Source of the DNA: a virus
Strand: one strand, 5' to 3'
UHGV virus genome: UHGV-1693931
DNA: 10,746 nucleotides
The translations under genes and the position numbers were made by a program. The notes under the pieces were generated by a model. The model saw only the letters and a program-made list of their open reading frames with translations, was not told where the DNA came from and did no database searches. Shown here one piece after another: positions 1-1,962 of the stretch. Every line of letters starts with the position of its first letter. The stretch's first letter is position 1.

Positions 1-605
1 CCTCAGACCGCAGCAAAAACCCGATGCTGCAGGATGTGGCCGTCGGCTGGCTGCAGAAGTACCGCAACGAAGCCCCGGCGCGTGTGATGAGTAACATCAC
101 CGACGCTGACGGTAAGGTCGTTTCGGCGGTGATTCGTGTCGGTAAGAACGGCGACTATGAGAACCTCGACGCGCTGGTGATGGACGGTACCAACACCCTG
201 ATTGACGAGATTTATCAGGATGACCCGAAACTCGTTGCTATCGTTGGTCGTAAGCTGCTGGCCGACAAATATTTCCCGCTGGTGAACAAACAGCAGGAAA
301 ACACCGAGTCACTCGCGGCGGATATCATCATCAGCCAGAAGCGCATCGGTAACCTGCCCGCCGTTCGCGTGCCGTACTTCCCGGCGAATGCGGTGCTTGT
401 TACCACGCTGGAAAACCTCTCTATCTACTTCATGGATGAGAGCCACCGCCGCAGCATTGATGAGAACCCGAAAAAAGACCGCGTGGAAAACTACGAGTCG
501 ATGAACATTGACTATGTGGTAGAGGCGTATGCCGCCGGTTGCCTGCTGGAAAACATCACACTCGGCGATTTCACCGCACCTGCAGCACCGGAAAGCGGAG
601 AGTAA
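1..605 (+). CDS. N: major capsid protein, C-terminal part (P2 gpN family); 5' end outside window
   Basis: Reading frame open from the left edge (codons from position 3, no stop) to TAA 603-605. Translation ...MLQDVAVGWLQKYRNEAPARVMSNITDADGKV...YESMNIDYVVEAYAAGC... is recognisable as the C-terminus of the P2 gpN capsid protein. The small terminase gene follows 4 nt later as in P2. Confidence 0.88.
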   Translation, partial: SDRSKNPMLQDVAVGWLQKYRNEAPARVMSNITDADGKVVSAVIRVGKNGDYENLDALVMDGTNTLIDEIYQDDPKLVAIVGRKLLADKYFPLVNKQQENTESLAADIIISQKRIGNLPAVRVPYFPANAVLVTTLENLSIYFMDESHRRSIDENPKKDRVENYESMNIDYVVEAYAAGCLLENITLGDFTAPAAPESGE

Positions 606-609
606 GCCC

Positions 610-1359
610 ATGACGAGCCCCGCACAGCGTCACATGATGCGGGTCTCGGCCTCTCAAGCCGCGCAGCGGGAACAAGCCCCGCTGCGCCATGCAACCGCCT
701 ATGAGCAGATGCTGGTAAAGCTGGCCGATGACCGCCGCACGTTGAAAACCATCCGTTCAAACGAACTGAAAGCCGCGAAAAAGCGCGAGCTGCTGCCGTT
801 CTATGCGCCGTGGGTTGCCGGTGTGCTGGCTGATGGCCGTGGCGCACAGGATGACATTCTGATGACCGTCATGCTGTGGCGTCTTGATGCCGGTGATATC
901 GCTGGCGCGCTGGAGATTGCGCCCTACGCGCTGAAATACGGCCTCACCTCTGACCATCGCCGCACCACGCCTTACATGCTGGTTGAGGAGGTGGCGCTTG
1001 CCGCGCTGCGCCTGCGCGATGCCGGTAAGCCTGTCGACCTCGCATTACTGCTGACCACCATCAGCCTGACCGACGGCGCTGACGTTCCCGATATGGTGCG
1101 CGCCCGTCTGCATAAGGTGACTGGCCTGACCCTGCGCGATACCGGTAAGAACGCCGACGCGCTGGCGCAGTTTCAGCGCGCGATGCAGCTCGACCGCAAT
1201 GCCGGTGTACGCAAAGAGATTGAGCGGCTGGAGCGCGCATTGAAGCCTAAGCCCGAGGCTGCGCCCCGTAAAACGACTAAACCGCGCACGCGCAAACCTG
1301 CCACCAAACCGGCGGCAAAGCGCGGGCGTCCACCAAAGGCGGTAAAAACCGCCGGTTAA
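610..1359 (+). CDS. M: terminase small (endonuclease) subunit, P2 gpM family
   Basis: ATG 610 with GGAG at 597-600; product begins MTSPAQRHMMRV..., matching the P2 gpM N-terminus. The upstream in-frame ATG 529 of the ORF track lies inside N and is not used. Lys/Pro/Arg-rich C-terminal tail. Confidence 0.9.
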   Translation: MTSPAQRHMMRVSASQAAQREQAPLRHATAYEQMLVKLADDRRTLKTIRSNELKAAKKRELLPFYAPWVAGVLADGRGAQDDILMTVMLWRLDAGDIAGALEIAPYALKYGLTSDHRRTTPYMLVEEVALAALRLRDAGKPVDLALLLTTISLTDGADVPDMVRARLHKVTGLTLRDTGKNADALAQFQRAMQLDRNAGVRKEIERLERALKPKPEAAPRKTTKPRTRKPATKPAAKRGRPPKAVKTAG

Positions 1360-1452
1360 CTGAACGCTCCCCGAGCCGGGCGGCACGCCGGTCAAAGCGG
1401 GTTTTGACCCTGACGGCGACCGGCGTCCACCGCCCAACCTAATGAGGTTGTC

Positions 1453-1962
1453 ATGACGACAGTAATACTGAATCAGCCCGACGAACCGCAGGACGTACCG
1501 GGCGTGGTGATTCCCGCACCGGAGACGGGCGACGCAGTGATTAAAAATACGTTCTTTTTCCCTGATGTGGATCCGAAGCGGGTGCGCGAGCTGATGCGCC
1601 TTGAGCAGACGGTTTCCGATGCGCGCCTGCGCAACGCCATCAAGACAGGCATGGCGGAAACCAATGCGGAGCTTTATGACTACCGGCTGCGCCAGATTGC
1701 AGCCGGGTTTAAGACACTGGCCGACGTGCCTGACGCCGAGGAAATCGACGGTGAGAATGTGCGCATTTTCCACTACCTGAGCGCCGTGACGGCGATGGCA
1801 ACCGCCACCCTGTATGAGCGTTATCGCGGGGTTGAGGCCACCGGCAAGGGTGACAAAAAAGCTGACAGCGTCGAAACCACCATTGATGACCTGTGGCGGG
1901 ATATGCGCTGGTCGGTCGCGCGCCTGCAGGATAAGCCGCGCTGCATCGTGGGTCAGCTCTAA
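1453..1962 (+). CDS. L: head completion/stabilisation protein, P2 gpL family
   Basis: 169-aa ORF starting ATG 1453 with GAGG 8 nt upstream; translation MTTVILNQPDEP...YLSAVTAMATATLYERYRG... is gpL-like; position between M and X as in P2. Confidence 0.9.
   Translation: MTTVILNQPDEPQDVPGVVIPAPETGDAVIKNTFFFPDVDPKRVRELMRLEQTVSDARLRNAIKTGMAETNAELYDYRLRQIAAGFKTLADVPDAEEIDGENVRIFHYLSAVTAMATATLYERYRGVEATGKGDKKADSVETTIDDLWRDMRWSVARLQDKPRCIVGQL

Follow-up and report, generated by a model that had tools for sequence, protein, structure and literature searches.

A conserved AT-hook-like motif near the C-terminus of the P2/186-type small terminase

The small terminase gene and its basic C-terminal tail

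The window, the whole stretch of 10,746 nucleotides that was analyzed, is the late region of a prophage of the P2 family (Peduoviridae), in which the small terminase gene lies between the major capsid gene and gpL, with X, lysis and tail genes following behind gpL (Table 1). The resulting gene order N-M-L is identical in the P2 and 186 records. The start of the small terminase is ATG 610, which matches the starts of 186 R and P2 M (the program-made list of open reading frames gave 529), and the TAA stop occupies positions 1357-1359. A Pfam profile search assigned residues 35-161 to PF05944 with 136.5 bits at a cut-off of 29.4, and the protein matched PHROG 74 (terminase small subunit) with E=1e-94; a search of NCBIfam returned no model for it. 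The identity to phage 186 R amounts to 93% over all 249 residues, with two differing positions in the tail, and the body is about 72-75% identical to that of P2 gpM. Judged from these similarities the protein is a small terminase of the P2-gpM/186-R type in a phage-186-like prophage, and the family matches together with the N-M-L order confirm the identity that a preliminary description had proposed from the letters alone. At the family level there is essentially no difference to 186 R and P2 gpM; the window encodes an allele of a protein whose sequence has been available for decades. Its presumed role together with gpP in cos cleavage and packaging is assigned by family membership.

Table 1. 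Features of the small terminase locus and further features of the window.
Feature	Position	Strand	Residues	Basis or remark
P2-type major capsid gene, C-terminal part	24-605			PF05125
Small terminase gene (P2 M / 186 R homologue)	610..1359	+	249 aa plus stop	Translation, PF05944, PHROG 74, flanking genes
Predicted folded body	610..1242	+	1-211	Ten alpha-helices, TPR-like solenoid, without helix-turn-helix
Basic Pro/Lys/Thr/Ala-rich spacer KPKPEAAPRKTTKPRTRKPATKPAA, predicted disordered	1243..1317	+	212-236	AlphaFold2 coil
AT-hook core KRGRPPK (by sequence)	1318..1338	+	237-243	PF02178 alignment, clade conservation
Short variable C-terminal end AVKTAG plus TAA stop	1339..1359	+		33% identity among divergent clade members
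M-L intergenic spacer	1360-1452
GC-rich hairpin GGGCGGCACGCCGGTC...GACCGGCGTCCACCGCCC	1378-1435	+		Within the M-L intergenic spacer
gpL gene	1453-1962			PF05926
242-aa open reading frame	8875-9603	-		Directly after the tail-fibre assembly gene
52-aa open reading frame	9615-9773	+		Partial Resolvase domain (PF00239)

The codon of K212 begins at nt 1243, and residues 212-249 (nt 1243-1356) read KPKPEAAPRKTTKPRTRKPATKPAAKRGRPPKAVKTAG. These 38 residues are composed of nine Lys, eight Pro, seven Ala, five Arg, five Thr, two Gly, one Glu and one Val and carry a net charge of +13 compared to +6 for the 211-residue body. In P2 gpM the C-terminal end is ...TPAKRGRPKKKAS, and the corresponding tail is KPKPEPQPKAATRAPRKTRSVTPAKRGRPKKKAS. 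Translation and composition thus reproduce, with exactly the same coordinates and sequence, the Lys/Pro/Arg-rich tail with KRGRPPK that had been noticed before. In those tails of the clade for which the distance was counted, GRP is located 5-9 residues from the C-terminus. Among 200,000 shuffles of the tail that preserve its composition, [KR]RGRP appeared in 0.2%, RGRP in 0.6% and GRP in 5.7%, and the motif is more than a product of chance. A frameshift artefact or a mis-called stop can be discarded, as the same tail is present in all 120 homologues that are at least 91% identical; all but five of these are exactly 249 aa long.

The AlphaFold2 model shows a confident TPR-like body of ten helices (residues 4-211), followed by a tail modelled as coil with a pLDDT of about 45-50. 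The pLDDT drops to about 70 and then 50 across the spacer and is below 50 at residues 225-227, 232-240 and 245-249, which places the hook core within a segment predicted to be intrinsically disordered. A sequence search of the PDB with the small terminase gave no match, and the family is without an experimental structure. The predicted body does not resemble any of the solved small terminases. Canonical small terminases consist of an N-terminal helix-turn-helix (HTH), a helical-hairpin oligomerisation core, a stalk and a flexible C-terminal moiety (PMC9611059). The HTH and the oligomerisation core are absent from the predicted gpM, which has the flexible and variable C-terminal moiety in common with them. 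An HTH domain (PF06056/HTH_23) is found instead at the N-terminus of the 186 large terminase, the homologue of P2 gpP (L012:1961-3727, minus strand), and therefore the recognisable major-groove reader of the P2 family lies on the large subunit.

The spacer between M and L contains a GC-rich hairpin, which as RNA has a folding energy of -43.7 kcal/mol (z = -2.9 compared to shuffled sequences). The flanks of its stem are conserved in 186 and P2; towards the apex the sequence changes, yet base pairing is preserved in each of the three. As no T-run follows, the hairpin does not look like an intrinsic terminator.

Conservation of the tail among gpM homologues

The homologues came from three word-index searches and an exhaustive HMMER search, which together gave 479 proteins. 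We binned these by identity to the folded body of the query, and distinct tails were counted in each bin. For phages the tails were read from fetched and translated loci; low-complexity-filtered tblastn alignments against phages ended at residue 212-216. Over the whole family tail length is highly variable and ranges from 0 to more than 100 residues. At a body identity of at least 60% there are 130 distinct tails with a median length of about 37-38 aa and a median charge of about +12 to +13, and 123 of them contain [KR]RG(RG/PG)RP. Of the seven exceptions two are point variants, and the other five are evidently products of frameshift, fusion or truncation. Between 45 and 60% identity the motif is present in only one of 48 distinct tails, a P2 chimera, and the median tail has 13 residues and a charge of 0. 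Between 30 and 45% it occurs in six of 193 distinct tails, and 109 of the 193 have a basic end, defined as a net charge of at least +5 over the last 20 residues.

Among the closest relatives the tail is kept in all 120 database clusters with at least 91% identity; KRGRP is altered in two of them (RGRL and RGRQ), and several spacer positions vary freely. For more distant comparisons we used pairs of P2/186 clade members with bodies less than 80% identical (mean 72%). In these pairs the hook 9-mer is 77% identical, the spacer 41% compared to 36% for shuffled spacers, and the end behind the hook 33%; the spacer is 20-28 aa long throughout the divergent members. Each of the five codons of KRGRP shows synonymous differences between the window, P2 and Klebsiella phage Kp4884-2, and the restriction of the changes in the hook codons to synonymous ones indicates that selection acts on the protein. 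By sequence comparison, purifying selection acts on the hook as a protein sequence in the whole P2/186 clade, and the overall pattern is the one expected of a short linear motif that such selection maintains on a disordered tether. A DNA-level explanation of the tail region was also considered and discarded: the DNA that encodes the tail contains no tandem repeat, neither a promoter-like nor a terminator-like site was found at 1200-1500, the GC content is similar to that of the remaining small terminase gene, and the changes in the hook are synonymous only.

The gpM homologues outside the P2/186 clade end in various ways, with short tails, acidic tails and basic ends without GRP among the more distant proteins. 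In the SEN4, KSP20, Xuanwuvirus, Reipivirus and Reginaelenavirus types the linker is acidic or neutral and leads into a K/R/T/A-rich end without GRP, and a basic K/R/T/A-rich end without GRP is also characteristic of the Yersinia-type tails. Short and non-basic tails are found in Graikaemvirus, Kapieceevirus, phiCTX and the Mannheimia and Ralstonia phages. The six hooks in the 30-45% bin all belong to one Erwinia/Pantoea-type clade, where VKRGRPAGVKK follows a long acidic linker. The members of this type (proteins P0421, P0422 and P0434-P0437 of our set) have bodies 37-42% identical to the query and tails of 93-137 aa, with [VK]KRGRP[AS][AG] inside a basic end after the long acidic linker. Either the common ancestor already had the hook and several lineages lost it, or the hook has two separate origins. 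The alternative raised in the preliminary description, a lineage-specific extension, also holds in so far as the tail exists only in some gpM lineages, with the hook conserved within P2/186.

The widespread basic ends bear on the question of whether the tail could be a generic polycationic and disordered extension, which provides non-specific nucleic-acid affinity, solubility or oligomer spacing and whose GRP has no role in the minor groove. The GRP-less ends of the SEN4, KSP20, Yersinia, Xuanwuvirus, Reipivirus and Reginaelenavirus types, as well as the large share of basic ends in the 30-45% bin (109/193), are what such an extension would predict. However, charge alone leaves the conserved Gly and Pro unexplained, the P2/186 spacer is near-random whereas [KR]RGRP is fixed despite synonymous codon changes, and the core VKRGRPAGVKK recurs in the distant Erwinia/Pantoea clade, so that we regard a purely generic function as quite unlikely. 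That basic ends are found again in other enterobacterial gpM clades rather suggests a more general requirement for positive charge at the distal end, of which the hook is a specialised version.

Resemblance to AT-hooks

AT-hooks are best known from eukaryotic chromatin proteins. The motif is defined as a peptide of 10-15 residues with a GRP core, flanking K/R residues and often nearby prolines, and it binds A/T-rich DNA by placing its RGR core in the minor groove (PMC11354804). In the window R238-G239-R240-P241 provides the GRP core with the RGR tripeptide, and basic residues on both sides as well as nearby prolines are present in K233-P-A-A-K-R-G-R-P-P-K-A-V-K246. Every sequence feature of the definition is found in the window peptide PAAKRGRPPKAVK and in TPAKRGRPKKK of P2, and TPAKRGRPKK of P2 is closely similar to the original AT-hook consensus of Reeves, TPKRPRGRPKK.

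In a Pfam search the only family matched by the tail was PF02178 (AT_hook), which aligned to tail residues 26-35 with 15.1 bits at a cut-off of 17.4; the other hook-bearing tails likewise matched no other family. As a control we scored human HMGA1, which reached only 16.2 bits and was also below this cut-off; the threshold of 17.4 therefore does not separate true single hooks in this test. Basic gpM tails without GRP gave no match to PF02178. One subclade of P2/186 has the variant KRGRGRPRK, which we take to be identical to the first hook of HMGA1. The earlier suggestion that KRGRPPK resembles an AT-hook is thus borne out at the sequence level by the published definition (PMC11354804) and by the sole Pfam match; the tail motif qualifies as an AT-hook by sequence, with binding to the minor groove as its predicted property.

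The closest parallels differ in architecture. The hooks of HMGA have the RGRP core, the flanking K/R residues, the nearby prolines and the disordered context in common with the window tail, but there are three of them compared to one in the window, which moreover belongs to a viral packaging protein, and they carry Arg/Lys-Lys after GRP where the window tail reads Pro-Pro-Lys. A bacterial AT-hook with structural confirmation is known from WhiB7 (PMC11354804). In WhiB7 and in the HMGA-like domain of CarD the hook is a short C-terminal RGRP arm accessory to a DNA- or protein-binding module, which corresponds to the arrangement in the window protein. Both are transcription factors with experimentally validated hooks, whereas the hook of gpM is a putative one, and its partner modules, a TPR-like small-terminase body and the HTH of the large terminase, are unlike those of WhiB7 and CarD. 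Single hooks bind only weakly on their own, and some motifs of the RGRP type are poor binders, as one hook of MeCP2 is much weaker than the other (PMC5028900); AT-hooks often accompany major-groove binding domains, according to a review.

Among small terminases, a GRP "AT-hook" (PKKRGRPAK) has been pointed out in the Sf6-gp1-like YffO (PMC10380284). In YffO and Sf6 GRP is N-terminal, whereas it lies near the C-terminus in the gpM of the window. The folds differ as well: P22 gp3, lambda gpNu1 and Sf6 gp1/YffO combine an HTH with an oligomerisation core, in contrast to the predicted TPR-like solenoid of gpM. P22 gp3 and lambda gpNu1 nevertheless possess a variable and flexible terminal segment implicated in binding of DNA and/or the large terminase, which is comparable to the gpM tail.

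RNA has to be considered as a ligand, too. It is bound by "extended AT-hooks" of the Tip5 type, in which a basic patch lies on either side of GRP at a distance of about 12 residues (PMC11354804). The tail might accordingly bind RNA, for example for autoregulation of the late mRNA or by using the structured M-L intergenic RNA. A basic patch, RKTTKPRTRK, is located 11-20 residues upstream of GRP, in weak resemblance to the layout of the extended hook (PMC11354804), and a conserved stable hairpin lies directly downstream of the stop codon of the small terminase. But only 8 residues follow GRP, which leaves the tail without a downstream patch, the position of the upstream patch is not conserved across the P2/186 clade, and nothing links terminase to RNA. 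We therefore consider RNA binding highly improbable.

A literature search for terminases with an AT-hook found no paper on the P2/186 terminase. The protein sequence has long been known; the hook and its pattern of conservation, however, do not appear to have been recognised before. For annotation the gain is modest, in that the AT-hook joins the DNA-binding devices of phage small terminases.

Possible role at cos and further features of the window

P2, 186 and P4 form a classic helper-satellite packaging system, which is now used for cosmids and transducing particles. Their 19-nt cohesive ends are almost the same, and a 55-bp cos core is conserved in all three, in agreement with PMC9594776 and PMC9122126; for the extent of the functional cos site we relied on PMC9594776 and PMC5694545. 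Within the core the sequence ATTAAAA is conserved. Beyond it the left ends (L013:1-60 for P2, L012:1-60 for 186 and L016:1-60 for P4) diverge in sequence. About 40-55 bp into the left end an A/T-rich tract can be seen in each of them, ATTGTATTTTTTCA in P2, AATGATAAAAATTATC in 186 and GTTAGTTAATTATTTG in P4.

The preliminary description had named close homologues with identical packaging specificity as the place to look for a missing or non-basic tail. No such case was seen among P2, 186 and their relatives: their cos sites are nearly identical, and none of them has lost the hook. A different situation is found in Ralstonia phage RSY1, with a gpM about 48% identical to the query and a neutral, hook-less tail of 15 residues (KNTAKADAKEGDGRS), in which the 55-bp core is retained (PMC5694545). 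As the core is kept without a hook in RSY1, core recognition does not need the hook, and the identity of the core argues for a hook that is accessory and not a determinant of cos specificity. Since most gpM homologues are hook-less like RSY1, the hook is also not essential for the basic function of the family. The A/T tract near +40 is likewise absent in RSY1. We take a link between the hook and A/T tracts at cos as a lead only, because it involves three related cos sites and RSY1 is confounded by its GC-rich host.

Based on the sequence evidence, we propose that the tail serves as an accessory minor-groove and electrostatic DNA anchor of the terminase, and we would put the probability of this reading, including the inferred DNA binding and action at cos, at roughly 55%. 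The tail would be a predicted-disordered C-terminal arm that consists of a basic, proline-rich tether of about 25 residues and a single AT-hook (KRGRPPK) near the C-terminus. The RGR core would insert into the minor groove of A/T-rich DNA and the basic tether would run along the backbone, which would give the terminase an additional DNA anchor of low sequence specificity at or beside cos that adds affinity or helps to shape the DNA at or near this site. The hook has two candidate targets, ATTAAAA within the core and the A/T tract located some 40-55 bp inside the left end. The conserved functions, assembly of the holoenzyme and recognition of the 55-bp core, would reside in the TPR-like body and the N-terminal HTH of the large subunit. 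Small terminases in general have a flexible and variable C-terminal moiety, and its deletion in P22 abolishes DNA binding (PMC9611059).

The deletion in P22 also abolishes association with the large terminase (PMC9611059), and the C-terminal moieties of lambda gpNu1 and P22 gp3 bind partners of this kind. It is thus conceivable that the tail is a protein-protein arm for gpP, the portal or the prohead, with the basic hook docking on an acidic surface and not on DNA, and the C-terminal 40 residues of gpP are indeed mildly acidic (-3 to -4). However, the termini of gpP are equally acidic (-5) and equally conserved in the hook-less RSY1, and no partner surface specific to the lineage was found; the comparison of gpP including RSY1 revealed no co-varying acidic tail on the large terminase as a partner for the basic tail. 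Furthermore, most gpM homologues are without the tail and must still bind the large terminase, so that this function is probably located in the conserved body, and an invariant RGRP with K/R flanks is a signature of nucleic-acid binding and not of a docking peptide (PMC11354804). Taken together, we judge a protein-protein arm to be unlikely and favor the DNA anchor.

The proposed anchor can be extended to a more speculative model, to which we give a low probability. P2-family terminases may split DNA recognition between the two subunits, with an HTH-less, TPR-like scaffold in the small subunit and the HTH on the large one, and the small subunit of P2/186 may add an HMGA-like tethered hook that holds or bends A/T-rich DNA beside the 55-bp cos core. 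If this were true, the terminase would carry an architectural element of its own in the form of the hook, which could also explain the effect of the flanks of the cos core on the transduction efficiency of P2/P4 cosmids. In any case, a conserved single AT-hook on the small subunit provides a precise hypothesis for DNA binding by the P2/186/P4 terminase and could guide the design of better cos cassettes, in which, for instance, the A/T tracts on the flanks of the 55-bp core are retained or introduced.

Two further open reading frames are located downstream of the tail-fibre genes of the window (Table 1). The 242-aa frame on the minus strand matched nothing in Pfam, PADLOC or PHROGs and may be a cargo or defence gene; its position is presumably the one where P2 carries the Z/fun moron. 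The 52-aa frame matches only the last ~26 positions of the Resolvase catalytic domain, with 20.2 bits compared to a cut-off of 23.3, and is probably the remnant of a Hin/Gin/Cin-type invertase adjoining the tail-fibre genes.
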